A stretch of 64,000 nucleotides of DNA from a virus. The DNA lies in IMG/VR virus record IMGVR_UViG_3300032323_002909, positions 1-64,000 of that record; one strand, 5' to 3'. A model generated the notes under the pieces. That model made no database searches. It worked only from the letters and a program-made list of their open reading frames with translations, and was not told the DNA's origin. A program made the position numbers and the translations under genes. Shown here piece by piece: positions 4,847 through 42,068 of this stretch (positions are counted from its first letter, which is position 1; the number at the start of each line of letters is the position of its first letter).

Positions 4847-5146
4847 ATGAGTGGAGGACATTTTGAATATCAGCAATATCGTATCGAAGATATTGCAAGA
4901 GGCATTGAGGAACTCGTTGCGAGCAATGATGATGAATCATTAAACGAATGGGGTGATCGTCGTGGATACGGCTATAATCCAGAAACTATAGAAAAGTTCA
5001 AATTAGCAGTTGACACTTTGAGAATTGCCGCTACAATGGCACAACGAATCGATTGGCTCGTAAGTGGTGATGATGGTGAAGATAGCTTTCATCGTCGTTG
5101 GGATGAAGAATTAAAAGAACTAAATACAAAAAATGAAACTAATTAA
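4847..5146 (+). CDS. conserved phage hypothetical protein
   Basis: MSGGHFEY...RIDWLVSGDDGEDSF motif. Confidence 0.75.
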   Translation: MSGGHFEYQQYRIEDIARGIEELVASNDDESLNEWGDRRGYGYNPETIEKFKLAVDTLRIAATMAQRIDWLVSGDDGEDSFHRRWDEELKELNTKNETN

Positions 5147-5627
5147 AACACTAATACTAATGTTGATGTGTGCATCAGCATCTGCAACCAATGTCGCATA
5201 CAACGGTTCTGCTTTTCGCAGTGCTACGGTTTATGCAGATGGTAAATATACCTATAGCTACTCACTTGACTTGTGGAAGTTAACAAGTCAGGAGCTACAG
5301 AGTTTCAATGTATTTTGGTGCGGCGGCGCTACAGGTCATTCATTCAACAGCAGCATCGAATTTGACTCACTTGACAAGAGAGAAGATCAAGTTATCTTCT
5401 ATGACTTTGAAAGTGACGATGATGATGATGATGATGATGATGGAAACGAGACAATTACATTTTCGTTTAAGAGTATCAATGCTCCAGTTGATGGGATTGT
5501 AACTTACAAAGCGGGGGCGACTACATGGCAAACTGTCGCAAAAGTTCCATGTGCAGCTATACCCGAACCATCTTCCGCACTTCTTCTTGGATTATCCACC
5601 TTACTATTAACCTATCGTAGACGATGA
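5133..5627 (+). CDS. PEP-CTERM sorting-domain protein
   Basis: Signal peptide (ASA-SA) plus C-terminal IPEPSSALLLGLSTLLLTYRRR; poly-Asp tract. Confidence 0.85.
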   Translation: MKLIKTLILMLMCASASATNVAYNGSAFRSATVYADGKYTYSYSLDLWKLTSQELQSFNVFWCGGATGHSFNSSIEFDSLDKREDQVIFYDFESDDDDDDDDDGNETITFSFKSINAPVDGIVTYKAGATTWQTVAKVPCAAIPEPSSALLLGLSTLLLTYRRR

Positions 5628-5853: not shown

Positions 5854-6846
5854 ATGAAATTAGCAAGTATTGAAAAAATTATATCAGTAACACATCATGA
5901 TAACGCAGATGCTCTTGACATTGTTAAGGTCTTGGGTTACGAATGTATTGTGCAGCGTGGAACACATAAAGAAGGAGAAGAAGTAATTCTGATTCAACCT
6001 GATACTATTCTACCTGATGCACCTTGGAGCGAAACTTTCAAGGCACGTAGTAGTCGTGTCAAAGCGTGTAAATTGCGTGGACGTTGGAGTTTTGGTATCG
6101 TCATGCCCATTTTCGAATTGATACCATTAGATATTGTCGATATACTCAATGTCGGTGATGAAGTATCACATCTCATTGGTGTGACTAAATACGAACCACC
6201 ATTGCCAAAAGATTTGCAAGCAGCAGGTTATTTACCCAAAGGATTACCAAAGACCGATGAGGAGCGTTGGCAAAACATTGACAATATCCCATTTGGTTCG
6301 ATGTGTGATATCACTCTCAAATACGATGGCTCATCACTGACTGTATTTGCACGTAAGAACGAAGATGGAGAATGGGAAACAAGTATCTGCTCAAGATCAC
6401 TGTGTCTGAAAGATGATTGTCAAAATCAATACACGATTGCCGCAGAAAAATATGATCTTGTTAAAAAACTACTGGATTATTGTCAGAAGCACGATGTGAG
6501 TCTTGCTTTGCGTGGCGAACTTTATGGTTCTGGTATTCAAGGTCATGGCAAGAATCCGCATAGTAAATTACCATTGGGGTTTGCAGCGTATAACATTTAT
6601 AACATGGACACCTTCAAATATGAATCTCGTAATACACCACACCATTACACCAAAGTTTGCGAAGAGTTGGGTATTGAAACCGTTAAGATTCTTGAAAAAG
6701 ATGTTGTCTTCACAGAAGAACATATTCGCAAATACAGTGTTGATATTGATCAAATTGATGGTAAATCATACGAAGGTGTTGTCGTGAAGTTCCACGATGG
6801 AGGTAGCTTCAAAATTATCAATCTGAAATATGATGAAAGAAAATAA
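5854..6846 (+). CDS. ATP-dependent RNA ligase (DRB0094/Rnl2-like)
   Basis: N-terminal KLASIEKI...HDNADALD domain; PKTDEERWQN; motif I TLKYDGSS; RGELYG; EGVV; FKII. Confidence 0.88.
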   Translation: MKLASIEKIISVTHHDNADALDIVKVLGYECIVQRGTHKEGEEVILIQPDTILPDAPWSETFKARSSRVKACKLRGRWSFGIVMPIFELIPLDIVDILNVGDEVSHLIGVTKYEPPLPKDLQAAGYLPKGLPKTDEERWQNIDNIPFGSMCDITLKYDGSSLTVFARKNEDGEWETSICSRSLCLKDDCQNQYTIAAEKYDLVKKLLDYCQKHDVSLALRGELYGSGIQGHGKNPHSKLPLGFAAYNIYNMDTFKYESRNTPHHYTKVCEELGIETVKILEKDVVFTEEHIRKYSVDIDQIDGKSYEGVVVKFHDGGSFKIINLKYDERK

Positions 6847-6849
6847 ATT

Positions 6850-7080
6850 ATGAAAGAATACGATGAAATTATCAAACAAATACGCAAAGAAGTCCAAGAT
6901 CTTGCTCTTGAACAAGACGTATTGTATAATGCTCTCAAAAAATCATTACCAAAATTGACAGAACGTGCTGAAGATTTTCTTTTCGATTACATCTTCAACA
7001 ATGGTGACGACTACACTTACGAAGATCATCTGAAAAAGATATTTGATGAAAAAATACCATTTGACATTTTTGAAAAATAA
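6850..7080 (+). CDS. hypothetical protein
   Basis: 76-aa ORF. Confidence 0.6.
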   Translation: MKEYDEIIKQIRKEVQDLALEQDVLYNALKKSLPKLTERAEDFLFDYIFNNGDDYTYEDHLKKIFDEKIPFDIFEK

Positions 7081-7088
7081 ACTAAAAT
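7061..7088 (+). promoter_or_regulatory. sigma70-like promoter (leaderless)
   Basis: TTGACA(7061)-N16-TAAAAT(7083), ATG 6 nt later at 7095. Confidence 0.65.
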
Positions 7089-7094
7089 AATAAC

Positions 7095-7550
7095 ATGAAC
7101 ATCGCACAAGGATTAAAAGAAAAGAATCGCATCGCAGGTCGCATCGCCGAACTTGAAAAGAAAATCGTTAAGAACAATAGGTATCAAAGCAATCGTCCAC
7201 CTGTGGATGATGTTGATGAACTTTTTGGACGTTTAACGCTAGAAAAGGCAAGTCTCGTAAGGCTTAAAAATCAACTTGCTGTTGCCAATGCTGGTATCTC
7301 TGGAGAACTTGCTGATCTTGCCGAAACAAAAGGCATGATTAAGTTTCTGGAAGGTCTGCAAACTGGTGTGAGTGGTTATCCAATTCAAACCCATGATTAT
7401 AACACCAATCGTTTGGTTGATTCCGAATTTACTATTGAATATGCTCTCGATCAAAAAGAAGTAGACCAACACATTTCCTCATATCGCAACCTTGCTGAAA
7501 AGTTACAAGATGCCATTGATAACTATAATGCAACCACGAAATTGAAGTAA
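7095..7550 (+). CDS. DIP1984-like coiled-coil protein
   Basis: MNIAQGLKEKNRI...LAVANA...LQDAIDNYNATT pattern resembles the DIP1984 family. Confidence 0.55.
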   Translation: MNIAQGLKEKNRIAGRIAELEKKIVKNNRYQSNRPPVDDVDELFGRLTLEKASLVRLKNQLAVANAGISGELADLAETKGMIKFLEGLQTGVSGYPIQTHDYNTNRLVDSEFTIEYALDQKEVDQHISSYRNLAEKLQDAIDNYNATTKLK

Positions 7551-7555
7551 AACTT

Positions 7556-7767
7556 TTGTCGGCTCAAGTGGATGAGATGATCTCGTGTCCTCGCGACACG
7601 ACCAATTCTGAACTGAGCTTGGTAAGCTAAAGATATTGAAAACGACATTGAACGCTATCATCGCTTTGTAGCAAAAATTCAAAACTCAAGATGCTGTTTT
7701 CAAAAATCAAATCTTAAAGCATAAACCTTAAATCACAGTCTATCAGATCTGAAGTTTGAGCCGACAA
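7556..7767 (+). ncRNA. putative structured ncRNA with heptad-repeat loop
   Basis: 12-bp perfect terminal inverted repeat TTGTCGGCTCAA/TTGAGCCGACAA, several internal stems, 7-nt periodic loop, no plus-strand ORF. Confidence 0.65.
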
Positions 7768-7802
7768 TCCTTAAAAACCACAAGATAATCATCGCACACA
7801 AT

Positions 7803-7940
7803 ATGAAAAAATACATTTATCGCATTTGGAATTTCTTTAGACCGTTCGAGCAACCAAAATATGGTGCTAAAATCTTTCAACAGAAAAGTTGGCTTGAAAA
7901 ACAGGTAAATGAAGAGTTGATAAAAATAAAATATCAATAA
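7803..7940 (+). CDS. hypothetical protein (45 aa)
   Basis: ORF after cassette motif at 7772. Confidence 0.45.
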   Translation: MKKYIYRIWNFFRPFEQPKYGAKIFQQKSWLEKQVNEELIKIKYQ

Positions 7941-8043: not shown

Positions 8044-8118
8044 GCTACCATCGTCTATCGGTTAGGATAAATGGTTTTCATCCATTAGAGCGGGGTTCGA
8101 TTCCCCGTGGTAGTGCCA
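8044..8118 (+). tRNA. tRNA-Glu(TTC)
   Basis: GCTACCA/TGGTAGT acceptor, AATGG-TTTTCAT-CCATT anticodon arm, GGTTCGA T-loop, CCA. Confidence 0.92.
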
Positions 8119-8210
8119 ATTTAGAGCGGCTCTTGTGTCTAGGAAGAGTCTCCAAAGAGTCAAGGTTATGACTTGCTGCCGTTAACTCGGAACGGACTCA
8201 ATTTTCAAAA

Positions 8211-8295
8211 GGGTAGGTAAAGCTAGTGGCTCTAGCAGCGAGACTGTAAATTTCGTCTCTTCGGAGGGGTGGATCAATACCACACCTGCCCACCA
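8211..8295 (+). tRNA. tRNA-Tyr(GTA)
   Basis: GGGTAGG/CCTGCCC acceptor, CGAGA-CTGTAAA-TTTCG, long variable arm, atypical T-loop ATCAATA, CCA. Confidence 0.85.
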
Positions 8296-8311
8296 ATTTT
8301 ATAATACCAAA

Positions 8312-8389
8312 GCCTTGGTATCGGAACTGACTTCTAATCAGTAGCACCGTAACGGATCAATGGAGGTTCGAGTCCTCTCCAAGGCACCA
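8312..8389 (+). tRNA. atypical D-armless tRNA-Arg(TCT)-like RNA
   Basis: Perfect GCCTTGG/CCAAGGC acceptor plus ACCA, ACTGA-CTTCTAA-TCAGT, canonical T-arm; only 7 nt in place of the D-arm. Confidence 0.7.
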
Positions 8390-8397
8390 CTTTCAAT

Positions 8398-8474
8398 CGT
8401 CCAGTAGCTCAGGTGGTAAGAGCGCGTGCCTTATAAGTGCGAGGTCATGGGTTCAAAACCCATCTGGACAACCA
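8398..8474 (+). tRNA. tRNA-Ile(TAT)
   Basis: TAGCTCAGGTGGTAAGAGC D-arm, CGTGC-CTTATAA-GTGCG, T-arm, CCA; C1:A72 mismatch. Confidence 0.85.
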
Positions 8475-8618
8475 CTTAAACAAAAATGACACTTATAGCA
8501 ATAATACTTACACTTTTTTCACTGGAAACTAGAACAATTATTTTACCACTTGCAACTGTTGGAGCATGGATATACGTTTGGATGCATTAAAAACCACATT
8601 ACCATAACCACACACGAT

Positions 8619-30227: not shown

Positions 30228-30417
30228 GAATAAGTTTTTGGTTTTCGATAGTTTTTACACCATCCGAAATCAGCAAAGCTTCATCTTTTTTAACTATAAT
30301 TTTATTACCAAAATCATCAGTAATTTCAACCATACCATCCTGTAATTCTGTAACTACAGGACATCCACGACCTTTGCAGCACAATTTAACACTATTATCA
30401 TTTATAATTTTAATCAT
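30220..30417 (-). CDS. hypothetical protein
   Basis: CC..RGCP...ITDDFG. Confidence 0.65.
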   Translation of the reverse strand: MIKIINDNSVKLCCKGRGCPVVTELQDGMVEITDDFGNKIIVKKDEALLISDGVKTIENQKLILG

Positions 30418-30462
30418 AACAGTAATATTTAGTAGGGTTATATTCTTTTACAATAACATTTA

Positions 30463-31098
30463 TCAATATTTAAATGCTTCTAGTGAATATTTAAAAGGAT
30501 TATTCGGTAATTGTCTTACTTGTTGTAACATTTCTTCGGCAACCATTCTGGTCTCAAGTTGGGTATCGGATTTCAATCTCAATCCCCAGAAATGGAAATA
30601 AGCCAGTAAACTACCTGTCCAAATAAATTGTGTTTCTAATGCTAGTGGAAGTATAATTCTAGCTTGTTCCTTAGCTACACCAGCTTCACACAACTCAGAA
30701 TAAAGAGATGCGCCGTCTTGGATATGTTGTTCTATTTTTTCTAAAAGATCTTTTCGTTCTAAAAATCCTTCACTTCCTTGTTTAGAAGATTTTGATTGTT
30801 TTCGGAGATGATCAATTTTCCAGTATTTGTCACTGAAATCAACATATCTACCACTAATACTATTCGCCGATAAACCGACCTGATGTTTGAACAATTGCCT
30901 TTCTACAAAGATGGGGCATTCGATTCTGAATTGTAATTGTGGATGTCTAAACGGAGCGGTATGTTTATGTTCGACGAGATACTTGATAAGTTTAGCATCT
31001 CTATCGTCAAAGAGTTCCTTTACTTTACCGTAACTAACACGTGCAGCATTCACAACCATCAGGTCATCTCCAAAGTAATTTATTAATTCAATTTTCAT
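30463..31098 (-). CDS. thyX: flavin-dependent thymidylate synthase
   Basis: VNAARVS, HTAPF, RQ..KH, SGRY, KEQAR.ILP, LR...TQ.E. Confidence 0.95.
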   Translation of the reverse strand: MKIELINYFGDDLMVVNAARVSYGKVKELFDDRDAKLIKYLVEHKHTAPFRHPQLQFRIECPIFVERQLFKHQVGLSANSISGRYVDFSDKYWKIDHLRKQSKSSKQGSEGFLERKDLLEKIEQHIQDGASLYSELCEAGVAKEQARIILPLALETQFIWTGSLLAYFHFWGLRLKSDTQLETRMVAEEMLQQVRQLPNNPFKYSLEAFKY

Positions 31099-31155
31099 TA
31101 TTTTTATAGAAAATATAATAACATTATATCTATCGTTGTCAAGTTAAATAATAGT

Positions 31156-31563
31156 ATGTCCACTATTAATAAAAAAATATTTCCAGATGATGTCGAATTA
31201 AAAGATATGGGTATCTATAACAATACTAGAAAATTTAAACTTTTGAAAGATTTTCGTTGTATTTATAATGACCATAAAATTACTGTCAAGAAAGGATTCA
31301 TCACAGATGGTGTATCTTCTCCAAAATTTGCGTGGCCCATTGTAGGACCATTTGGTAACGCCTTTACTGCTGCGTTAGTCCATGATTGGTGTTTCTCACC
31401 TTATAATGAAAAGTATTCTTGGAAGGAATCGAATTGGCTCTTTCTTCAACTAATGAAAGAATCGGGAGTTGGATTTGCTATGAGATGGGCTATTTATAGT
31501 GCTGTCGTAGCAGGATCTTTTCCAATGTGGTTAAATAGATTTGAAAATTATGGACTCAAATAA
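31156..31563 (+). CDS. DUF1353 family protein
   Basis: GFITDG.S.P...AALVHDW. Confidence 0.8.
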   Translation: MSTINKKIFPDDVELKDMGIYNNTRKFKLLKDFRCIYNDHKITVKKGFITDGVSSPKFAWPIVGPFGNAFTAALVHDWCFSPYNEKYSWKESNWLFLQLMKESGVGFAMRWAIYSAVVAGSFPMWLNRFENYGLK

Positions 31564-32326
31564 TAAAAATGATTTAGTAAAACGTGTTCAACGTTTACTA
31601 GGAGTCGGCGCAGATGGTGTCGCTGGAAATGTAACATGGCGAGCAATTGAGGGGCGAATTACTGGTAATAATTTGGGGTCTACTAATAAACAGCGCATAA
31701 TAAATGTGCAAAAATTTTTAAAATTAAAAGACGATGGTATCGATGGATTAATTACTTGGAACGCTATTTTAAATACTTTGTCTCAAACGCCATCATCCAC
31801 CACAGTAATTACACAAAATAGTAATTATTCTGAAACTATTAAACTTTCCAATCAAACCAATGGTAAGTATGCGCAGTCCATAAAACCAGAAGCTATTGTT
31901 CTACACCATACAAGTGGGAATTATGAAGGCTCTATAGCGTGGACAAATAGGGTATTTAATGAAAAAGGAAAGCGTTTGTATGGGTCTTATCATTGTATTG
32001 TTGCAAGAGATGGTAGACGAACTATTACAAATTCAGATACAAACAGGGCATATCACGCAGGTCCATCTATATTTAAAGGTAAAACAAATTTAAATAATTG
32101 GTCTTTGGGTGTGGCATGGGAACGAGACACTTACAGTGAACCTTTATCCAATGCCGCTATTGAAAGTGCTTTGGAATATATTTTACCAAGAATGAAAAAA
32201 TGGGGAATTACTCCTGACAATGTTACCGACCATAGAACAGTTGCTCCCAATCGAAAAGATGATTTGGCTCCCAAAGAATATGCGAAGTTTATGAAAATAC
32301 TTCGTGAACGATGGGAAAAATATTAA
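31550..32326 (+). CDS. endolysin: PG-binding repeats plus N-acetylmuramoyl-L-alanine amidase
   Basis: DG..G..TW repeats; IVLHHT, SYH, AYHAG, DHR.VAP.RK.D. Confidence 0.88.
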   Translation: MDSNNKNDLVKRVQRLLGVGADGVAGNVTWRAIEGRITGNNLGSTNKQRIINVQKFLKLKDDGIDGLITWNAILNTLSQTPSSTTVITQNSNYSETIKLSNQTNGKYAQSIKPEAIVLHHTSGNYEGSIAWTNRVFNEKGKRLYGSYHCIVARDGRRTITNSDTNRAYHAGPSIFKGKTNLNNWSLGVAWERDTYSEPLSNAAIESALEYILPRMKKWGITPDNVTDHRTVAPNRKDDLAPKEYAKFMKILRERWEKY

Positions 32327-32628
32327 TTTAATCGTTGTTTTATTTTTGATAGGGCTAAACGCACCGCATTATGTTCGGACGAGTCGCCCTCAAATTCTTT
32401 TTCTACATCTGCAATGATTTCGAGAATATTTGATGGTTCTTCTTCTTGTTCACCATATACATGAGATGTTACCATGGGTGGTGCGACCCCTATAGTTTGT
32501 TTATTATAAGAAAGTTTTGTCCCAGCACTTTGAGGAGTTTCTTGATTTTTTACTCTTTGTGGGGGATTGAAACCAGTTTGATATTCTAAAATTAAATCGG
32601 AATATATGTTTTGTAAAAATTTATCCAT
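32323..32628 (-). CDS. hypothetical (putative virion) protein
   Basis: LILE site; TAAATA upstream. Confidence 0.6.
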   Translation of the reverse strand: MDKFLQNIYSDLILEYQTGFNPPQRVKNQETPQSAGTKLSYNKQTIGVAPPMVTSHVYGEQEEEPSNILEIIADVEKEFEGDSSEHNAVRLALSKIKQRLN

Positions 32629-32676
32629 GATATTATTTAATTTGCAATTCTAAAAAAACATGTTATATAATATATT

Positions 32677-33285
32677 ATGAATGTTTTGTCCGATAAATAT
32701 GCTACCAACGTTTCTTTAGACGATAACGAAGATGCTGAAATCGATACTAATTCAACGATTGAAATTATATCTAATAAAATTTTATTTTATGGAGACATTA
32801 CCGAATCCAATATTCTTCAGCTTAACAAAAACCTTTTTATATTGGATTCTAAACTTCAACGCCTTAAACATTCGCTCGATGGTTATGAGCCTGTTATAGA
32901 ATTACATTTAAATACTTTTGGTGGTTCGGTCTATGCAGCGTTGGCAACCGTTGATACCATCCGCAATTTGAAGACCAAGGTTCATACGTATGTTGATGGT
33001 AGTGTCGCTTCTGCTGGAACATTGATAAGCATAATAGGTGGAAAAAGATTTATGGGTAGCCATGCCCACTTATTGATACATCAATTGAGTGATGGTATGT
33101 ATGGCAAATTTCAAGAGATGGCTGATACAATGTATAATTGCACGAATCTCATGAACATGTTAAAAAATTATTATAAAAAATATACCAAAATCCCAATGAA
33201 AAAATTTGATGATTTAATTAAAAAGGACATTTGGTTATCCGCTGATGAATGTCTTCAGTATGGAATTATTGACGAAATTATTTGA
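32677..33285 (+). CDS. ClpP-like serine protease
   Basis: LNTFGGSV, VASAGT, LIHQLS, D.WLSADE...G.IDEI. Confidence 0.85.
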   Translation: MNVLSDKYATNVSLDDNEDAEIDTNSTIEIISNKILFYGDITESNILQLNKNLFILDSKLQRLKHSLDGYEPVIELHLNTFGGSVYAALATVDTIRNLKTKVHTYVDGSVASAGTLISIIGGKRFMGSHAHLLIHQLSDGMYGKFQEMADTMYNCTNLMNMLKNYYKKYTKIPMKKFDDLIKKDIWLSADECLQYGIIDEII

Positions 33286-33390
33286 ATAATGTTCTTGCTT
33301 TCACAATCCACTATGCTAGTATTTAGCACATCGAGCAAGAAAAAATGAATACGATAAACATTATTTTCTGGGGCTAAATAATAGACGATC

Positions 33391-34365
33391 ATGAGTATTT
33401 ACGACGAACAAATTAGTAGAAAACCAAACAAATATCCTTGGACAGAACAATTCATTAAAGTTATGCATGACGGTTTTTGGACTGATAAAGAATTCAGTTT
33501 TAAAACCGATTTACACCAATTCAAAACTGCATTAAACGATAAAGAACGCGAAATTATTGTCAGAACTTTATCCGCTATTGGGCAAATTGAAGTTGCTGTC
33601 AAAACATTTTGGGCTAAACTAGGAGAGAATTTACCACACCCATCTCTATCCGATCTTGGTTATGTGATGGCGAATGTTGAAGTCATACACAACAATGCAT
33701 ACGAGCGTCTATTATCCGTATTGGATATGGAAGATATTTTCGAGGAGAATCTTAAATTGGAGTGGATACAAGGACGAGTGAAGTATCTCAAAAAGTATAC
33801 TCATCGTTTCTACAAAGATTCCAAGAAACAATATTTATATGCTCTCATTTTATTCACTCTTTTTGTAGAGAATGTTTCTTTATTTTCACAATTTTATATT
33901 ATCAATTGGTTTGCTAAGAATAAAAATGTTTTGAAGGACACTGATCAACAAGTTCGTTATACAAGAAACGAAGAAGCTATCCACGCTATGGTTGGCATGA
34001 AAATTATCAATACCATTCGCGAAGAGCATCCTGAATTATTCGATGAGGAATTAGAGGAGCGTATCGCACATGAATCAGAGCAAGCGTTTTTAGCAGAAAG
34101 CAAAATCATCGATTGGATGGTCAACGGTATTGACGAGAGTGGTTTGTCTGCACCTATTCTCAAAGAATTTATCAAAAATAGGATAAATGAATCGTTGGCG
34201 GGTATCGGATTTAAAAAAGTGTTTGATGTCGATCAGACTTTGTTAGATGAAACATTCTGGTTTGACGAGCAAGTTCTTGCTCCAAACATGACGGATTTTT
34301 TTAATTCTAGACCAGTGGAATACGCTAAAAATTCACAATCTTACGACGAAGACGAATTATTTTAA
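33391..34365 (+). CDS. nrdB: ribonucleotide reductase class I beta subunit
   Basis: EVIH..AY, VENVSLFSQF, EEAIH, DFF..RPVEY. Confidence 0.93.
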   Translation: MSIYDEQISRKPNKYPWTEQFIKVMHDGFWTDKEFSFKTDLHQFKTALNDKEREIIVRTLSAIGQIEVAVKTFWAKLGENLPHPSLSDLGYVMANVEVIHNNAYERLLSVLDMEDIFEENLKLEWIQGRVKYLKKYTHRFYKDSKKQYLYALILFTLFVENVSLFSQFYIINWFAKNKNVLKDTDQQVRYTRNEEAIHAMVGMKIINTIREEHPELFDEELEERIAHESEQAFLAESKIIDWMVNGIDESGLSAPILKEFIKNRINESLAGIGFKKVFDVDQTLLDETFWFDEQVLAPNMTDFFNSRPVEYAKNSQSYDEDELF

Positions 34366-34368
34366 TAT

Positions 34369-36021
34369 ATGACAAGAGACAAATACTATTGGTTAAATGA
34401 TGACTCCATTAAATTTTTGGAGAGGGGATATCTAGAAGAAGGACAAACACCTTTATCTAGAATTGAGAAGATCGCGTTAACAGCGCAAAATATTTTAGGT
34501 ATTGAGGGATTTGCTGATAAGTTTATAGATTATATGTCTAGAGGTTATTACAGTCTTGCAACGCCTGTATGGATGAATTTTGGTAACAAAAGAGGCAACC
34601 CAATCTCCTGTTTTAATAGCCATATTGGAGACAGCATAGAAGACTTCTTGATTAAACAGGCAGAGGTCGGTATGATGACAAAAGTTGGCGGCGGCACTTC
34701 TGGATACTTTGGCGATATTAGACCACGTGGTTCTAAAATTAGCACAGGTGGGACGGCAGAGGGAGCAGTGCGTTGTATGGAACTATTCGATACTGTTACT
34801 AGTATCGTGAGTCAAGGAAGTGCTAGACGTGGCAGTTTCGCAGCTTATCTACCAATTGATCATGGTGACTTCGATGAATTTATGAAGATTCGTTCTGAGG
34901 GACATCCTATCCAAGAAATGTCTATCGGTGTAACAATTCCTGAAGGATGGATGCAGTCGATGATTGACGGTGATAAAGAAAAACGCCGCCGATGGGCAGC
35001 AGTAATTAAAAAGCGTTCTGAGACAGGATACCCATATATTTTCTTCACTGATAATGCTAATAATAATAAACCACAAGTTTATAAAGATAAAGGTTATCAA
35101 CTCAATGCATCTAATTTGTGCTCCGAAATCTTTCTTCCATCTACAAAAGACGAATCGTTTGTTTGCTGCTTATCTTCGCTAAATTTACTATGGTGGGATG
35201 AAATCAAAGAAACAGATGCTATTGAAACTTTGGTCATGTTCTTGGATGCAGTGATGACAGAATTCATCGAGAAAACAAAAGATGATAGACTTATGGAAGC
35301 TGCTCATAAGTTCGCTAAGAACCACAGAGCATTGGGTATGGGCGTTTTGGGCTATCATAGTTATTTGCAATCCAAAATGATTCCATGGGAAAGCGTGGAC
35401 GCTCATTTTGAAAATATATCTATCTTTTCGACAATTAGTGTACGTGCTGATAAAGCTACTAAATTATTAGCTGAAAAATTTGGCGAACCTGAAGTTCTTA
35501 AAGGTTATGGTCGTAGAAATACTACAACTATTGCTATTGCACCCACCACATCGAGTAGCTTCATTCTAGGTCAAGTGAGTCCAAGTATTGAACCATTGAA
35601 TAGTAATTATTTTGTGAAGAATCTTGCTAAAGGAAACTTTACATATCGCAATCCAAAATTGGTTGAGGTCTTGAATGAGAAGGGTAAAGATAATAAAGAA
35701 GTTTGGAAAAGTATTTTGATCCATGGTGGTAGTGTTCAACATTTAGATTTCTTAAGCCAAGATGAAAAAGATGTCTTTAAAACATTCGCAGAGCTTTCGC
35801 AAAAAGAAGTAGTGATTCATGCTGCACAAAGGCAACCATTTATTGACCAAGGACAATCACTGAATGTGATGATTCCAGCAAATACCAAACCAAAAGAAAT
35901 CAATGAATTGATGATTTTCGCATGGGAAAATGGAATCAAATCTTTGTATTATCAAAGAAGCTCCAATCCGTCTCAAGATTTGGCTCGATCCATTCTGACA
36001 TGCAAATCATGTGAAGGATGA
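34369..36021 (+). CDS. nrdA: ribonucleotide reductase class I alpha subunit (no ATP cone)
   Basis: PISCF, GGG, SNLCSEI, APT.SSS, KSLYY, C-terminal CKSCEG. Confidence 0.95.
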   Translation: MTRDKYYWLNDDSIKFLERGYLEEGQTPLSRIEKIALTAQNILGIEGFADKFIDYMSRGYYSLATPVWMNFGNKRGNPISCFNSHIGDSIEDFLIKQAEVGMMTKVGGGTSGYFGDIRPRGSKISTGGTAEGAVRCMELFDTVTSIVSQGSARRGSFAAYLPIDHGDFDEFMKIRSEGHPIQEMSIGVTIPEGWMQSMIDGDKEKRRRWAAVIKKRSETGYPYIFFTDNANNNKPQVYKDKGYQLNASNLCSEIFLPSTKDESFVCCLSSLNLLWWDEIKETDAIETLVMFLDAVMTEFIEKTKDDRLMEAAHKFAKNHRALGMGVLGYHSYLQSKMIPWESVDAHFENISIFSTISVRADKATKLLAEKFGEPEVLKGYGRRNTTTIAIAPTTSSSFILGQVSPSIEPLNSNYFVKNLAKGNFTYRNPKLVEVLNEKGKDNKEVWKSILIHGGSVQHLDFLSQDEKDVFKTFAELSQKEVVIHAAQRQPFIDQGQSLNVMIPANTKPKEINELMIFAWENGIKSLYYQRSSNPSQDLARSILTCKSCEG

Positions 36022-37794
36022 TTATGATTCTCTAGGATATTTCTTCTCATGAACTTGAGGATACGCAACGGCAACGGAATTATGTCTATTAATTCCGTTG
36101 TTTTGTGCCTCTTTTCTAACACCACTATTCGACTTAGTCAGGTTCAATGGTAAATTATTGAAATGATGTCCGTGCGGAGGAGACACAATAATATCGGGAA
36201 CAGGTAGAGCAAAGACGGGCCAAATACCTGCACTACTACCACTAGCAATGACACATTCACCAATCAACAATGTTCTAGGTGCTAAAGTATTAAATGTACT
36301 ATAAAGAATCGTGTCTTCTGTTTGTTGAACTTCCAGTGGTGCAGTAACGTGTTGTAGATACGTTTCACCTTCTACTGATAGCCCCCCACCCACAATTAAA
36401 TTATTTTTAACACCGAGGGAAGATTCAACATATACCTGTCTATCTGTGCGCAGTGTTATAGTTTTTAAAGACTGTATCTCAACACCTGCTTCCGAACCAA
36501 TATGAATACCATGGGAAGCGTTCATCATCAATTGTTTGAATCCGACTCTCATTATAGTGCCACCCATTTCCATGGAACCAGAAGTTTTTAAAGATATACC
36601 ACCAGAACCAACATTTCTCACATAAGAATTTCCAACTATTTTTACATCTTTACCACAGGGAAAATTAGATGCATTATCAATTTCTTCTAAAAGAGGAATA
36701 TAATCATGATTTTTATACGCGCCCGTATCAGAAACCAACATTTCAAATGGTTGGCTTCTACCTTTCTCATCAATTTTTACAGATGGGTAATCATTAAATA
36801 TCGCACCAATGGTTTCCAACTTATTCCGTTTCAAGACAACGTGTTCGTCTCCACCGTCTCCCATTTTGGATTCTATATCCGTAAGAATCGGTTGCATCTC
36901 TTTAACATAATCATCAATTTTTAAAGTATCTGGATCTGTTGCCCATTGTCCATTTTCTGTAGCTGCTGAAACTTGAGCACCGAATTCCATAACAGCAGGT
37001 GCTGCGGAACCATTTTCCCCAGCACTTTTCGATATATCATTTAAAGTTATTTTCTTAGCCGATGGCATTTCTCCTATTCTTTTGGAAATAGGAGCGTATG
37101 AATTAACATCATTAGTTAAAAATTTAACTGATGGTATTTTTTGATAACCACTAAAAATGCTTTCCACTGTATACGTTTCTGAGCCTATAACGGGGTTATC
37201 AGCGCGTTTACCATCCAGAGGTATAGTTTGACCATTTGGTATAGAAATGCCGCCACGCTTAATTTTAAATTTAGCATTACCTGCTGCAATAATAGCGAAA
37301 GCTTCTTTCCATTCGTCATATGCCCTAAGTTCGCTTTCGTCTTTAAAACCTTTAAAAATATATGACGTGCCACCAATTCTTTTATTATAATCACCTCCGA
37401 TATATTCACTACAATCGCCTTTGATTGTTTCGAATTTATCATTGACTACTAATGTTTGTTTGTTATTAGTAGCCAATTCAGAATTAACCAAATTATTAAT
37501 ATTAAAATTACTGCCTGATCTTTGAGATATTTGTATCCCTTCATTGTCAGAAGTATTGTTTATAGTAATAGATGCTCCTCTTTGATTTAAAATAAAACGA
37601 TTGCGATATTTTTTAGATATTTTAGGTGCTCTATTACTCTCAGATGTTTGTGTATCGTTGTTAGCTGTTTGGGTGTTGTCGGTAGATGTATCTACACATG
37701 GAATAATTATATTCGATAAATCAGAATTGCATTTGTTATCAAATCCTTTATTTTTTCCATTACTGGTATTTTGATTATATTTTTTTGTTGCCAT
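36022..37794 (-). CDS. baseplate spike/hub protein, gp5 C-terminal-like
   Basis: Beta-helix-like repeats, terminal HGHH motif; adjacent to gp5 N-domain gene. Confidence 0.55.
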   Translation of the reverse strand: MATKKYNQNTSNGKNKGFDNKCNSDLSNIIIPCVDTSTDNTQTANNDTQTSESNRAPKISKKYRNRFILNQRGASITINNTSDNEGIQISQRSGSNFNINNLVNSELATNNKQTLVVNDKFETIKGDCSEYIGGDYNKRIGGTSYIFKGFKDESELRAYDEWKEAFAIIAAGNAKFKIKRGGISIPNGQTIPLDGKRADNPVIGSETYTVESIFSGYQKIPSVKFLTNDVNSYAPISKRIGEMPSAKKITLNDISKSAGENGSAAPAVMEFGAQVSAATENGQWATDPDTLKIDDYVKEMQPILTDIESKMGDGGDEHVVLKRNKLETIGAIFNDYPSVKIDEKGRSQPFEMLVSDTGAYKNHDYIPLLEEIDNASNFPCGKDVKIVGNSYVRNVGSGGISLKTSGSMEMGGTIMRVGFKQLMMNASHGIHIGSEAGVEIQSLKTITLRTDRQVYVESSLGVKNNLIVGGGLSVEGETYLQHVTAPLEVQQTEDTILYSTFNTLAPRTLLIGECVIASGSSAGIWPVFALPVPDIIVSPPHGHHFNNLPLNLTKSNSGVRKEAQNNGINRHNSVAVAYPQVHEKKYPRES

Positions 37795-37796
37795 AG

Positions 37797-39044
37797 TTAT
37801 TTGTTTTCGAAATCGTTTGGATAATAACTTGATGCTCCCGATTGATTATCTGTTCTATTTAGTACAGAAAGTCCCCGAAGATCTTGTGTAACGCCAAAGT
37901 AAACGGGAAAATTTAAATCTCCCATATAATGGAATACCCAAACTTTAGAACCAACTTCTGGTATTCCTATAGCTCCTTTCGGTTTATTGCTATGATTTTG
38001 AGGAGCAAAACCATGAGAATATGGATTAGCTTTCATACTGGAACTATCATTTGGTAGTCCAAACACATCACTTATTTTGGTTTTGATAAATTCATATATT
38101 TGAGCGGGTGCTTGGGACAACACCCCATCTCTAGTGATACCGTTTAATGATGGTGATTCCCATGTAGATGAACTATCGGTATTGACATCATTATCATCTA
38201 CTGGTGGTAACAATGATGGGGCATCTTCTATAGGTGGTTCGGATGGTAATTCACTTGTTGCTATTTTATCAGGCGGTGTTTCTTCTGGAATATCTGGAGA
38301 TTTGCCTAATTTTTGAAAAGATGTTATCTTACCACCCCAAGAATTATTTCCATTGTTTCTTCTGTAAACATCGATGGTGGGTGGTAAAGGTCCAGTTCTT
38401 TTGTCATAAGAAGGTACTGTATCACCGTATTGTAACACCAGTGTCCCTTTAGTCGTAGATATTCTAAACCAGTCGTTATGCTGTAAGCCTAGAGATGTTG
38501 CCAAACTTTTAGATATAGCAGCCGATTTTTCGTCAGTTAAACGATTGTTTCGATGACCTATACCGTTACTACTATAGGTATCAGGAGTTGAATCTGAGGC
38601 GTATCCATAATTCGATAATTTGATAGGAGGATCAAATTGTGTAACGCCACCAACATCTACCAAACTAAGATTTTCGGGATCTTCGACATAACCTTCAGCG
38701 TAATTACCATCGGACAGCGTTGCTGTGACATTGTCGCCTTCTCTAGCTGACCTAGATGATCCAGATTCGCCTACCAATGGATAACAAGGTTCTGCCCATG
38801 GTATATTTTCGGCAATTTTATCTACAATTGTGGGATCACTCCAACTATCAACACCAGGTGCCTTGATATTAATTTCATCTAAAGTTCCTAACCATTCTTC
38901 AAACGGTTGATTGGATAATTCTGGTATATAAACTTTGACCCTGTTTAATTTCAAAGGGTCGTCATTTTTAATAACGATGCCTCTATAAAATGATTCATCG
39001 ATTCTTTTTGACTCTGCACCTGAACCACCACCTCTATTAAACAT
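37797..39044 (-). CDS. gp5-like OB-fold baseplate protein with inserted 3D/DPBB-like domain
   Basis: YRGIV..NDDP...RVKV.IP, PWA.P, P.VGS.VWVF..GD...PVYFG; internal YG..SD...AAIS...GDT...IDVY. Confidence 0.7.
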   Translation of the reverse strand: MFNRGGGSGAESKRIDESFYRGIVIKNDDPLKLNRVKVYIPELSNQPFEEWLGTLDEINIKAPGVDSWSDPTIVDKIAENIPWAEPCYPLVGESGSSRSAREGDNVTATLSDGNYAEGYVEDPENLSLVDVGGVTQFDPPIKLSNYGYASDSTPDTYSSNGIGHRNNRLTDEKSAAISKSLATSLGLQHNDWFRISTTKGTLVLQYGDTVPSYDKRTGPLPPTIDVYRRNNGNNSWGGKITSFQKLGKSPDIPEETPPDKIATSELPSEPPIEDAPSLLPPVDDNDVNTDSSSTWESPSLNGITRDGVLSQAPAQIYEFIKTKISDVFGLPNDSSSMKANPYSHGFAPQNHSNKPKGAIGIPEVGSKVWVFHYMGDLNFPVYFGVTQDLRGLSVLNRTDNQSGASSYYPNDFENK

Positions 39045-39122
39045 ATAATACTATTTAATAGTAGAATAGATTATTCAACCATGTGTTATAGTATAAAAAT
39101 ATAGACAGAATGTGTCTATAAA

Positions 39123-39575
39123 TTAATATCCTAGTAATCTTTTTCTACGAGTTTCGGGAATTGATACCGAAATGGTTTCCGAAAATGCCGAAGTAGGAAT
39201 TGTCGTGACCGTGCTAAGGAAAGGAAACACCGAAAAGGTATTATCATTATTCACAATAGCCATCGTGGAATTGTGTAAAGAAGATGGAATACTGAACACC
39301 GAACCCAGAATATTAACCGTAATATTAGGAACATTGGTAAGGGAAAAACCTGATGCAGTATTAACAGTTGTTCCCATCGAAACTTCAATAGGAGTAAATG
39401 CTAAACCAATATCAGAAGTTGATAAAGATATTGTTCCGATTTGACGTGCTGATACGAGAACAGAATCACCCGAAAGATAGGTAACACCAGTAGCTGACAG
39501 AGCAGCATTTGTAATATTAGGAACGCCAGTCTTTTGCGCGGAGAGAATATTGGAAGAGAATGTGTAGATGCTCAT
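39123..39575 (-). CDS. putative structural protein
   Basis: S/T-rich; late promoter. Confidence 0.55.
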   Translation of the reverse strand: MSIYTFSSNILSAQKTGVPNITNAALSATGVTYLSGDSVLVSARQIGTISLSTSDIGLAFTPIEVSMGTTVNTASGFSLTNVPNITVNILGSVFSIPSSLHNSTMAIVNNDNTFSVFPFLSTVTTIPTSAFSETISVSIPETRRKRLLGY

Positions 39576-39671
39576 ATGATATTATTTAGTCGTTTTGATT
39601 ATTTTTTTACAGAATTATTATTCTACCCCTGATTCTGTTTGTGTTTATCTCGCTAGTTACTAAATAATAAC

Positions 39672-40475
39672 ATGAACATAAATATCAAAGAAAAGAGGTT
39701 GTATATAGTAAGAAACCTAATTAATGGGAAGGTTTATGGCGGCAAGCACTACTGGAGTCCTGATACCAAATATATGGGTTCTGGTTATGCGCTGAAAAAA
39801 GCTTTTGAAAAGTATGGTAAAGAAAATTTTAAAATTCGTTGGTTAAAATTGAAAATAAAATCTTCGGAACATTTAGATCAATTGGAAATACGAATGATTC
39901 GTTTATTAAAACACATTTTTAGAAACAGATGTTACAATATTCAAAAAGGTGGATGTGGTGGTTACTTTACTTATTACATGAGTGATATCGAAAAACAAAA
40001 AGTTTTTAGAAAAATTAGTGAGGGTAAGAAAAGGCAATATGCAAATGGGTTTACAGAAGAACAATTGTTGGGGCATAAAAAAGCCAATCAAAGTAAAAAA
40101 CATAGAATGGACAACGATCCAGATTATTATAATGCCGTTTATATTAAAGGTAATGAAAAAAGAGTGAACTCTTTAAAAGAACGTAGAAAAGCACTTGGTT
40201 TAACTCAAAAAGAAATTGATAGACATAAAGATTTGATAAAATATAGTCAGAAAATAACTACTTATAAAATATTATATCCAAATGGTTTTGAAGTTGTTGA
40301 GACTAAAACTATCACAGAATTCATGGAAACTTATAAAACTGAATATAATATTTTTATAGATGCTAGAAGAAATGGTAAATTCGTTTTTAAACGTAGAACT
40401 TCGATGACTAAACATCCTTTTCCACCAAATACTGAATTGTATATTATAAATGAAGTTCGAGGATGTGATATATAA
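39672..40475 (+). CDS. GIY-YIG (Seg-like) homing endonuclease
   Basis: LYIVRNLINGKVYGGKH...YMGSG...KYGKENF...YN. Confidence 0.85.
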   Translation: MNINIKEKRLYIVRNLINGKVYGGKHYWSPDTKYMGSGYALKKAFEKYGKENFKIRWLKLKIKSSEHLDQLEIRMIRLLKHIFRNRCYNIQKGGCGGYFTYYMSDIEKQKVFRKISEGKKRQYANGFTEEQLLGHKKANQSKKHRMDNDPDYYNAVYIKGNEKRVNSLKERRKALGLTQKEIDRHKDLIKYSQKITTYKILYPNGFEVVETKTITEFMETYKTEYNIFIDARRNGKFVFKRRTSMTKHPFPPNTELYIINEVRGCDI

Positions 40476-40482
40476 AAACGAG

Positions 40483-40514
40483 GAAACCGCGAGGTCTTCG
40501 GCACTCGCGGTTTC
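40483..40514. terminator. hairpin between convergent endonuclease and capsid genes
   Basis: GAAACCGCGAG/CTCGCGGTTTC 11-bp stem. Confidence 0.75.
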
Positions 40515-40562
40515 AAAATATTTTTGGTTGTAACTACTTGAGCTTCAACTATTTATAATTTA

Positions 40563-42068
40563 TTATAAATATGTCGAAACCGAACCAGGTGTAAACGCAG
40601 TACCGAGACCTTTAACGATGATCAAATGGTAGTAAAGATTAGCACCGAAAATGTTATTCACGATACCATAGCGGGTCATAAGACCAACGCGAGGCGCGAA
40701 ATCATTTGGGCCAATCGTTCTTTGCACCATAATGGGGATATATGGGCAGTAGATAATACCAGTGTCATAGTATTCAGAACCTTTGTAACCCAACAGAGCA
40801 TACTCAACACCATTTCCACCGTTAGGCGAATTCGTGTAGGAGTTATTGTTTCTGTAGAGAGTAGTGTTCTGAACTTCAGTCCGAGTATCACGATAAACCG
40901 TCCAGCGGCTACCAACAGTACCAACTTTCGACACACCTACGCCAGCCGTGGAAACGGTTCCACCAACTTCAAATACTTTGAAGTCAGGAAGCATTTCAAG
41001 GATGCTGCATACACGTGGGGTGGCGATAACAAAGTTAGCAGCACCTCTACGGTTACGAGCAGCCATACGACCACTTTCGATGAGCAAGCGTTGATAGAAG
41101 GTAAGATTTCTTTCAGCAGTCCAACGACCATCCGCACTAACAGGGCTCCAAATGGAGAAACCTGCGCCAGCCCCAGCATTGAAGGCTGTTTGGATCATGC
41201 GCATCACAACTTCACGGTCGATTTCGGCTTGGATCTCATACGACATAGCATTCGTAAGTTCACCATCGATATCGATACCGTTCATGTTTTTGATGTCTTG
41301 CTCCAATTCAACCGACCAACGAGTAGCCAATCTACGTGTTCCAGCAACAACAGCGGATTTGTCGAACTTCAACTCGATTTGAGGGATTTTGCCCGTCAAT
41401 TCGTAGTTATTCAGAAGTTCAGCAATACCACGGTCTTGATCTGCGAAGCTCCAATGTTCGGTATTACCCGAAAGGAAGTTCGAAGACGTGCCAGTAAAGC
41501 GTGTATCCAGAAGTTGATAACCAAGTTCGTCACTAGTGGAACTAGTGTCATTCAACGAGGGGAGTCCAGCAGCATCAGATCCAGTGTAGGCAGCTTTTAA
41601 TTGTTCTCCAAACGAAGAACCGTTACCACCACCAGAAGGCTTACCGTCGATACTACCATCGCTCAGAGTATCACCTTGGTAGGCGTAACGAAGAGCAAAA
41701 GCAAGACCAACAGGTCCACCCATAGGCTGAACACCAACGATTTCGTTGGAGATCAATTCAGGGAAAGTGCGTCGAATCATAGGAATCAGAATCTTTGGAA
41801 GACGAGCATCGCCAGTAGCATAGCTATCGCTGTTAGCGATGCCATTACCGACACTACCAGTCGCACCAAACACGCCACCAGAAGCAGCAATGTTAGATTC
41901 TTGAAAGCACCACTGTTCTTGGTTCTCCAAAAGCATAGCGGTCGTTTTGTAAACGTGCTCATTTTGGATAGCAGGAATCGAGTTCGAGCTATAGTCCAAA
42001 ACTTTGCGCCATTTATTAACGGCTTGTTGCATTTTTGAAGTGTTTATATCAGATTGTGGGATATTCAT
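40563..42068 (-). CDS. gp23: major capsid protein (T4 gp23-like)
   Basis: LLENQE, IRR.FP, VGVQPM.GP.GL.FALR, EI.AEI.RE, YCPY, F.P..G..TRYG. Confidence 0.97.
   Translation of the reverse strand: MNIPQSDINTSKMQQAVNKWRKVLDYSSNSIPAIQNEHVYKTTAMLLENQEQWCFQESNIAASGGVFGATGSVGNGIANSDSYATGDARLPKILIPMIRRTFPELISNEIVGVQPMGGPVGLAFALRYAYQGDTLSDGSIDGKPSGGGNGSSFGEQLKAAYTGSDAAGLPSLNDTSSTSDELGYQLLDTRFTGTSSNFLSGNTEHWSFADQDRGIAELLNNYELTGKIPQIELKFDKSAVVAGTRRLATRWSVELEQDIKNMNGIDIDGELTNAMSYEIQAEIDREVVMRMIQTAFNAGAGAGFSIWSPVSADGRWTAERNLTFYQRLLIESGRMAARNRRGAANFVIATPRVCSILEMLPDFKVFEVGGTVSTAGVGVSKVGTVGSRWTVYRDTRTEVQNTTLYRNNNSYTNSPNGGNGVEYALLGYKGSEYYDTGIIYCPYIPIMVQRTIGPNDFAPRVGLMTRYGIVNNIFGANLYYHLIIVKGLGTAFTPGSVSTYL

Follow-up and report, generated by a model that had tools for sequence, protein, structure and literature searches.

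The window analysed here is a stretch of 64,000 nucleotides (nt) from the IMG/VR virus record IMGVR_UViG_3300032323_002909 (positions 1 to 64,000), a record of 150,461 bp that is estimated to be 73% complete. Among its genes is an open reading frame (ORF) of 151 amino acids (aa) at 7095-7550, with the stop codon TAA at 7548-7550, that encodes a protein resembling the DIP1984/DUF6847 family, and this gene is directly followed by a structured RNA element of 212 nt. The arrangement was first noticed in a prediction made from the letters of the DNA (the original prediction), which described a coiled-coil, DIP1984-like protein followed by an RNA of about 210 nt with a strictly 7-nt-periodic loop, and which proposed that the protein may oligomerise on the RNA to form a ribonucleoprotein. 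The observation has been confirmed, with corrections to the fold of the RNA, and gene and RNA together are a conserved two-part unit. The interpretation is partly supported: the protein-plus-RNA module is real, and its protein is predicted to form a dimer rather than a ring.

The structured RNA and its conservation

The element is closed by a perfect 12-bp inverted repeat (TTGTCGGCTCAA at 7556-7567 and TTGAGCCGACAA at 7756-7767) that begins 5 nt past the stop codon, just as had been predicted, and that encloses 188 nt. Folding of the 252-nt intergenic stretch gives a minimum free energy of -55.7 kcal/mol, with z = -2.83 relative to dinucleotide shuffles, and the G-U pairs of the element are consistent with the + strand. 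The element is probably the 3' part of the transcript of the DIP1984-like gene. A hidden coding sequence can be rejected, as the longest ORF within the element is only 24 aa and the indels seen among close relatives are not multiples of three. The element matches no family in Rfam, the database in which the original prediction had proposed to look for it: no family of Rfam 15 was found in 7551-7802 at E<=10, none at E<=0.1 for homologous RNAs from 13 loci, and the covariance models of RAGATH-27 and the other Rfam 15 families match neither the window RNA nor its homologues at the thresholds used.

Relatives were collected as non-redundant groups at 90% identity, 81 for the comparison of neighbours and 78 with enough 3' flank for the RNA model. 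In the closest three viral relatives (79-87% protein identity) conservation of the element equals that of the coding sequence. A first covariance model (R1), for which 7 close sequences were used, gave full-length matches directly past the stop codon where the proteins are only 25-50% identical. A further model (R2), built from 18 RNAs that R1 had found, matches in 54 of the 78 groups, with starts that lie between -8 and +194 nt from the stop codon and always on the coding strand; when ~0.7 Mb was searched on both strands all R2 matches with E<0.3 were found to sit directly 3' of a homologous gene. Furthermore, several of the loci that are negative with R2 have the same stem, a GAUAUUGAUAA tract and YUYAAAA heptads that are recognisable by eye. 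The gene and the RNA are therefore a linked pair, as the original prediction had supposed.

The structure is conserved as well as the position. Across 37 homologous RNAs, in an alignment that was itself fitted by the covariance model, 87.2% of the cells at paired columns hold a pair as against 34-44% once the partners are shifted by 1-3 columns, a shift that also lowers the covariation score from 0.519 to 0.04-0.08, and changes on both sides are seen in 34 of 39 pairs, including every pair of the closing stem P1. Single-sequence folds of the relatives, made independently, give closing stems of 10-17 bp that are unrelated in sequence. Most bacterial relatives of the module come from Lentisphaerota (PVC group), in which a shorter form of the RNA occurs that keeps the closing stem, a GAUCUU GAUAUU GAUAAU tract, the hairpins and UYAAR heptads, with a fold z of -9.2. 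It had been proposed that the 3' flanks of homologues be put to a covariance model, and the flanks do share a conserved structure and a conserved periodicity.

Within the closing stem the two hairpins that the original prediction had pointed to, TCGTGTC/GACACGA (P2) and AGCTT/AAGCT (P3), are both present; P2 has double changes in every pair (helices 7-8 of the model), and in close relatives P3 is replaced by TGCAT/ATGCA or ATGCTA/TAGCAT. The predicted inner stem TCTGAACTG / CAGT..TCAGA exists in the letters, but it competes with the pairing of 7578-7581 with 7742-7745 that is backed by covariation, and it is unconserved in relatives, so that it is not retained in the fold given here. The large loop of heptads has likewise had to be redrawn, since 7691-7703 pairs with 7636-7648 (TTGAAAACGACAT / ATGCTGTTTTCAA) in a helix, P4, that recurs with other sequence in distant relatives; the heptads are there in the letters as described, part of the loop is helical, and the A-rich, G-poor heptad tracts that lie outside P4 are 7673-7690 and 7704-7741. 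In the extension of P1 a UGGA faces UCUGAAG, an arrangement that is conserved within the phage clade.

It may be added that UGGA (7570-7573) opposite UCUGAAG (7748-7754) could give tandem G-A pairs of a K-turn-like or loop-E-like kind, and that tandem G-A motifs of these kinds are typical protein-binding motifs. The shorter Lentisphaerota form of the RNA is without the UGGA/UCUGAAG motif.

The heptads begin at 7677 and read ATTCAAA ACTCAAG ATGCTGT TTTCAAA AATCAAA TCTTAAA GCATAAA CCTTAAA. In the A-rich tract of the window, base identity is 0.54 at lags of 7 and 14 compared with 0.17-0.39 at other lags, and among the 37 homologous RNAs the mean z at lag 7 is 2.7, with z > 2 in 26 of them, and lag 14 is significant in 18. 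Some relatives have exact repeats, for example AAAACTC three times or TCAAGAT twice, and no other part of the RNA family is as well conserved in sequence as the heptad array, whose motif is AAAAYUYAARAYUYAAAA. The 7-nt period is thus significant and family-wide; it is good and not strict, and to this extent the original prediction overstated it. There is also a second periodic tract, one of 6 nt (7632-7655), that was absent from the earlier description. The upstream tract gives peaks at lag 6 and lag 12 in relatives, lag 6 having z>2 in 8 of 23, and GAUAAY repeats are seen across clades within it.

Table 1. Positions of the gene, the parts of the RNA element and the neighbouring features in the window
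Feature	Position	Strand	Basis or remarks
DIP1984/DUF6847-like protein, 151 aa, three long helices and a beta-hairpin	7095-7550	+	Hidden Markov model (HMM), AF2 model and fold matches
Whole structured RNA element, 212 nt	7556-7767	+	Covariance-model match 7548-7785, 192-213 bits
P1 closing stem, 5' strand	7556-7567	+	Pairs with 7756-7767; all pairs doubly compensated across 37 RNAs
P1 extension, 5' side, with UGGA purine-rich internal loop	7568-7581	+	Pairs 7569/7754, 7574-7575/7748-7749 and 7578-7581/7742-7745
P2 hairpin TCGTGTC-CTCGC-GACACGA	7583-7601	+	Double changes in every pair
P3 hairpin AGCTT-GGT-AAGCT	7616-7628	+	Other sequences in close relatives
6-nt periodic tract GATATT GAAAAC GACATT GAACGC	7632-7655	+	7636-7648 is the 5' strand of P4
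P5 apical hairpin GCTA/TAGC	7654-7672	+	Relatives have TTGCC/GGCAA or other sequences
7-nt periodic A-rich, G-poor array of NYUYAAA units	7677-7739	+	7691-7703 in P4, remainder predicted single-stranded
3' side of P1 extension (ATCA, conserved UCUGAAG) and P1 3' strand	7742-7767	+	Covariation and conservation
ATP-dependent RNA ligase, DRB0094-type (RNA_ligase domain and PHA02142 OB-fold)	5854-6846	+	Domain matches
Sigma-70-like promoter match TTGACA-16-TAAAAT, 11/12	7061-7088	+	Consensus match only; just 5' of the DIP1984-like gene
Promoter-like motif TTAAAAACCACAAGATAAT for the small gene that comes next, starting with ATG at 7803	7771-7802	+	12-mer recurs at 8587
tRNA-Glu (8044-8118), atypical tRNA-model match (8312-8386) and tRNA-Ile (8398-8474)	8044-8474	+	tRNA scans

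The promoter-like motif of the next small gene may mark the 3' limit of the cassette. A further promoter-like sequence is found inside the DIP1984-like gene at 7502-7529, where the codons of the invariant protein motif LQDxIDNYN encode a sigma-70-like GTTACA-16-TATAAT (10/12) whose end is ~20 nt short of the RNA. In relatives such as locus L159 the DNA has a weaker match or none, and the sequence may therefore be a by-product of the protein motif (here and below, L followed by a number denotes a locus that was compared with the window). Of the features around the pair, the tRNA-model match at 8312-8386 scores 41.5 bits with the Rfam tRNA model; its D region is truncated, its variable region is long, and it is given no call by ARAGORN. 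Upstream of the RNA ligase, an ORF of 164 aa at 5133-5627 has a terminal PEP-CTERM-like motif that is under the Pfam cut-off and hints at an exosortase-bearing host.

A blastn search for cultured-phage relatives gave tRNA matches only, and tblastn found one uncultured 595-kb phage. Phage T5 (L165, record 30284-41566) is annotated with eight "stable RNAs with unknown functions" among its tRNA genes, one of them the 719-nt RNAX downstream of the 144-aa ORF T5.081, and none of these matches the protein profile or the RNA model; neither the tRNA region nor the whole record of T5 matches protein profile A2 or model R2, which are clade-specific models, so that a distant version is possible. In L019 (1-5435) a DIP1984-like gene sits inside an array of 15 tRNA genes, one of them with a CTA anticodon, and the RNA model finds no heptad RNA after the gene. 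Finally, in L168, a high-GC bacterial genome from a Bacteroidota-phylum sample, a closed RNA (1943-2117) comes after a canonical DUF6847 gene that scores 162.9 bits. This RNA has a T-arm-like hairpin, GGGUUCGAUCCCC, and its heptads are CACACCU CACACAU CACCCUG CACAACC, which keep the period with a different unit. This single case suggests that the pairing extends into the core DUF6847 family.

The protein of the pair

The identity of the protein as DIP1984-like is borne out by its fold. It matches the Pfam family DUF6847 (PF20935) over its full length with 24.8 bits, where the cut-off is 27, and the NCBIfam family DIP1984_fam (NF038048), again over its full length, with 29.9 bits, where the cut-off is 70. 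Relatives that carry the same RNA exceed the Pfam cut-off (L030 with 31.5 bits and L023 with 27.9 bits), and it would therefore seem that the window protein belongs to a divergent clade on the margin of the DUF6847 family, a clade whose profile is matched at E<=0.001 by 1611 clusters formed at 50% identity. The AF2 model of the window protein has a predicted local distance difference test score (pLDDT) of 90.7, and its top Foldseek match is 3KDQ from Corynebacterium diphtheriae, with a TM score of 0.66-0.73. Alignment to 3KDQ with VIA-align gives Z 13.6 and a root mean square deviation of 2.6 A over 141 residues, the next matches being generic helical hairpins with Z<=9.6, and 3kdq is also recovered, at E=0.008, when the PDB is searched with a profile, so that 3KDQ is the sole specific structural match. 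The window protein and the solved member of the family are of equal length and share a fold, with weak full-length HMM matches; they differ in that the window protein falls under the curated cut-offs, and the family models that it matches record no partner RNA and no link to RNA repair. A search of the literature by family name (DIP1984/DUF6847) yielded a sole mention, which is unrelated and has no partner RNA or RNA-repair link.

When four copies of the protein were modelled together, a symmetric antiparallel helical dimer was predicted with a score of 0.70 compared with 0.00 for the best control. Of 30 proteins whose solved structures are pairs, 20 attain the mark for this score, as does 1 of 23 whose structures are single chains. 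This calibration was made with two copies where the prediction used four, and the 3KDQ crystal could already have been known to the predictor. The runs that gave the dimer share at least 93% of contacts and the partner has a pLDDT of at least 88. Oligomerisation, as foreseen by the original prediction, is thus predicted here too, in the form of an antiparallel helical pair rather than a TRAP-like ring. Two motifs are invariant, LKEKNR near the N-terminus and LQDxIDNYNA near the C-terminus, and both fall outside the predicted dimer interface; they may form the ligand site. The Pfam scan of the window protein found no TROVE domain, and PADLOC models match none of the proteins of the window, L159 and L077. 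The L030 protein has weak matches in PADLOC of a coiled-coil type, to JetC and LmuB, at E 0.004-0.02.

The neighbours of the pair

RNA-repair genes are found beside the pair in 24 of the 81 non-redundant groups. The most frequent are the DRB0094-type RNA ligase with a PHA02142 OB-fold (Rnl), which is upstream of the pair in nine groups, the window's own neighbour included, and RtcB, which is likewise found in nine groups, with RtcA in two of these. The Rnl-neighboured loci include distant ones (L033 and L048), and their proteins include some that are only 27-29% identical to that of the window. The regulator RtcR is found in five groups; it is divergent from the pair in L146, L153, L156 and L159, all of which also have RtcB adjoining the pair, and in L160, where no RtcB was detected. 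RtcB also adjoins the pair in L161. In five groups there is a protein of 552 aa that has the Pfam domains DUF7788 and DUF2828 alone, that is an "RNA-binding protein" in PHROGs and that gives no sequence match in the PDB, and for these reasons it can be called Ro-like only with caution. The original prediction had placed the pair between an RNA ligase and a tRNA cluster, and whilst the RNA-ligase neighbourhood is no accident, given that RNA-repair genes do recur beside the pair, tRNAs are found within the fetched flanks of only about 5 of 60 loci, so proximity to tRNAs has been rejected as a general rule. No gene was found that is universally conserved beside the pair. It may also be mentioned that in L161 a 134-nt tRNA-model match (4945-5078) lies just past rtcB, and that this may be either a tRNA with an intron or a tRNA-like RNA that belongs to the repair operon.

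L159 has rtcR on the - strand, a sigma-54 promoter TGGCAC-N5-TTGC (TGGCACgccatTTGC at 2918-2933), the DIP1984-like gene, the RNA, an intrinsic terminator and rtcB, and in L146 the order is rtcR on the - strand, the gene, the RNA, rtcA and rtcB. The terminator of L159 (3662-3700) is a strong one, and its place after the heptad RNA and before rtcB implies that rtcB is controlled by read-through or attenuation. In five Lentisphaerota genomes with the operon form the best-scoring RtcB is the copy beside the module, and no TROVE domain was found in these five genomes, which are metagenome-assembled genomes (MAGs), so that its absence is not proven.

This arrangement recalls the rsr-yrlBA-rtcBA operon of Salmonella, which encodes Rsr (Ro60) and the Y RNAs yrlB and yrlA, is controlled by RtcR and is switched on by it upon the appearance of tRNA halves with cyclic phosphate ends (PMC7790460; PMC4201824). 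Like the Ro60/Y RNA system, the pair consists of a protein gene and then a non-coding RNA of 100-200 nt with its 5' and 3' ends in a long stem, and in Lentisphaerota it sits between a divergent rtcR and rtcB or rtcA-rtcB, the position that rsr and the Y RNAs have in Salmonella. The setting in RtcR-controlled rtcB(A) operons or beside RNA ligases is thus shared, and the module is also carried by large phages, adjoining RNA ligases. The molecules themselves are unlike those of the Ro60/Y system. The protein is a helical, DIP1984-fold predicted dimer of ~150 aa whereas Ro60 is a TROVE/vWA ring, the window RNA has no tRNA-like domain and no match to the Rfam YrlA model, and arrays of heptads and hexamers are not a feature of Y RNAs.

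Other systems are also alike in part. TRAP with the trp leader and HutP with the hut leader of Bacillus resemble the pair in having short units at a fixed spacing in single-stranded RNA, and by analogy the fixed spacing suggests one protein subunit or site per unit. The proteins of those systems are beta-rich rings (an 11-mer and a hexamer) that bind 5' leaders and control termination, whereas here a helical dimer is predicted, the RNA is 3' of the gene and there is a 7-nt period with a second tract of 6 nt. Taken together, the module is far from every described system.

A possible ribonucleoprotein and its rivals

The reading that we favour, and on which we hold the balance to be even, is that dimers of the DIP1984 fold bind the RNA and that the resulting ribonucleoprotein acts in the response to RNA or tRNA damage. 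The RNA would be made as the 3' part of the transcript of the gene, and would fold into a closed multi-helix structure that displays G-poor, A-rich units in a 7-nt register beside a 6-nt-periodic strand. Dimers may then bind the phased units through the invariant polar tips LKEKNR and LQDxIDNYNA, and the particle could work alongside RNA ligases, Rnl in the phage of the window and RtcB in bacteria, as a scaffold, a nuclease decoy or a damage sensor. The heptads could even be read as units that resemble anticodon loops (YU-YAA-RN). What speaks for direct partnership is that the RNA lies within a few nt of the stop codon across very distant lineages, whatever the neighbours, which is the pattern expected of direct partners. 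A more specific proposal, that the pair is a second class of ribonucleoprotein in phage and bacterial RNA repair, unrelated to Ro/Y, in which dimers read the heptad array and aid RtcB or Rnl, is put forward tentatively, and we would sooner expect it to fail than to hold.

A number of observations weigh against binding and a role in repair. The window protein is not basic (21 K+R and 22 D+E), and a Pfam scan found no known RNA-binding domain in it. About two thirds of the loci have no recognisable RNA-repair neighbour, some bacterial copies have unrelated neighbour genes, and in one T4-like lineage the pair lies between a topoisomerase and the major capsid gene. The pair is found within ~2 kb of the Ro-like gene in five groups and directly adjacent to it in three; in L077, L016 and L017 the two are clustered, being adjacent in L077 and ~2 kb apart in L016 and L017, and matches to YrlA (RF02553) of 30-36 bits, which is below threshold, are found in L016 (1111-1219), L017 (1157-1231) and L077 (2793-2856). 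With a Ro-like gene and a sub-threshold YrlA near the pair, it would seem that the module accompanies Ro/Y and is not simply a substitute for it or a disguised version of it. As for the RNA itself, helix P4 has gaps and few double changes across clades among the 37 RNAs, and the fitting of the alignment by the covariance model biases the pair counts towards structure.

Several of these observations would suit a free-standing non-coding RNA that has other partners, the DIP1984-like protein and the RNA being merely co-expressed in one pathway. Candidate partners are the RNA ligases, host single-strand binders of the S1, KH or Hfq type, or a host ribonuclease for which the RNA would be a decoy or sponge. 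The single-stranded, A-rich heptads do look like generic sites for single-strand binders, the protein has neither a basic character nor a known RNA-binding domain, RNA-repair neighbours recur, and the units can be read as anticodon-loop-like. For YrlA it has been proposed that it competitively inhibits an anticodon nuclease (PMC7790460). We nevertheless consider this explanation unlikely, given that the position of the RNA just past the stop codon of this very gene has been kept across distant lineages. A cis-acting 3' untranslated region (UTR) of the DIP1984-like mRNA, that is a stabiliser, a terminator or attenuator, or an autoregulatory site with no role of its own, would account for that position, and it is in keeping with it that a conserved promoter for the RNA itself was not identified and that in many loci the closing stem has an intrinsic terminator after it, the one between the RNA and rtcB in L159 among them. 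However, a multi-helix fold of 140-220 nt with highly conserved single-stranded repeats exceeds what stabilisation or termination needs, and as the downstream genes vary by lineage the regulation of a downstream gene cannot be general, so a plain 3' UTR is in our view quite improbable.

The original prediction had also drawn an analogy with type III toxin-antitoxin systems. On such a view the pair would be a toxin-antitoxin or abortive-infection pair, and its protein a toxin neutralised by the repeat RNA. Like ToxIN, CptIN and TenpIN the pair has a protein gene that adjoins a repeat-bearing RNA, is carried by phages and bacteria, and is found in settings of phage-host conflict. The analogy fails on the fold of the protein, the type of RNA repeat and the order of the genes: the tandem repeats of type III systems are ~34-45 nt long, lie upstream of the toxin behind a terminator and are cut by it, and the toxin is an endoribonuclease of another fold, whereas here 7-nt units lie within one closed fold downstream of the gene for a protein with the helical 3KDQ fold and not that of ToxN or AbiQ, and none of the type III features is found. 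Given also the lack of a PADLOC match for the proteins of the window, L159 and L077, and the presence of the pair inside rtcB operons controlled by RtcR and sigma-54, a toxin-antitoxin pair is very improbable. A feature of the DNA and not of RNA, be it a miniature mobile element, a decayed gene copy or a chance structure in AT-rich DNA, is next to inconceivable; the terminal inverted repeat of 12 bp is indeed perfect and the gene shares weak direct repeats with the element, ~415 nt apart, but compensatory changes keep the pairing across lineages, the G-U pairs suit the + strand alone and the position relative to the stop codon is fixed. A dispersed repeat or mobile element is rejected by the single copy of the element in the 150-kb record, and a decayed duplicate of the upstream gene by a local alignment score of 21 where shuffles give 19.0 +/- 2.4 and 67 of 300 shuffles equal it. 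A retron-like system, in which an RNA with pairing ends goes with a reverse transcriptase, was also considered, and no reverse transcriptase is present among the annotated neighbours, for which no systematic search was made.

DUF6847/DIP1984 is a large orphan family for which a crystal structure has been available since 2009 and to which no function is assigned, and the present analysis points to a structured RNA, missing from Rfam, as the companion of the members found in phages and in Lentisphaerota. If the reading as a second class of ribonucleoprotein is true, DUF6847 would gain both a function and an RNA ligand, and a helical protein that reads RNA units phased at 7 nt would be a new mode of recognition. 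Experiments are feasible, as Victivallis vadensis can be cultivated and the locus from its MAG (L146) has the operon form. The presence of the pair beside RtcB, RtcA, RtcR, Rnl and Ro-like genes gives an entry into the questions of what is repaired by RNA-repair operons and of the accessory particles that serve them, and for the large phages that carry it the pair is likely to be an added component of counter-defence or RNA maintenance.

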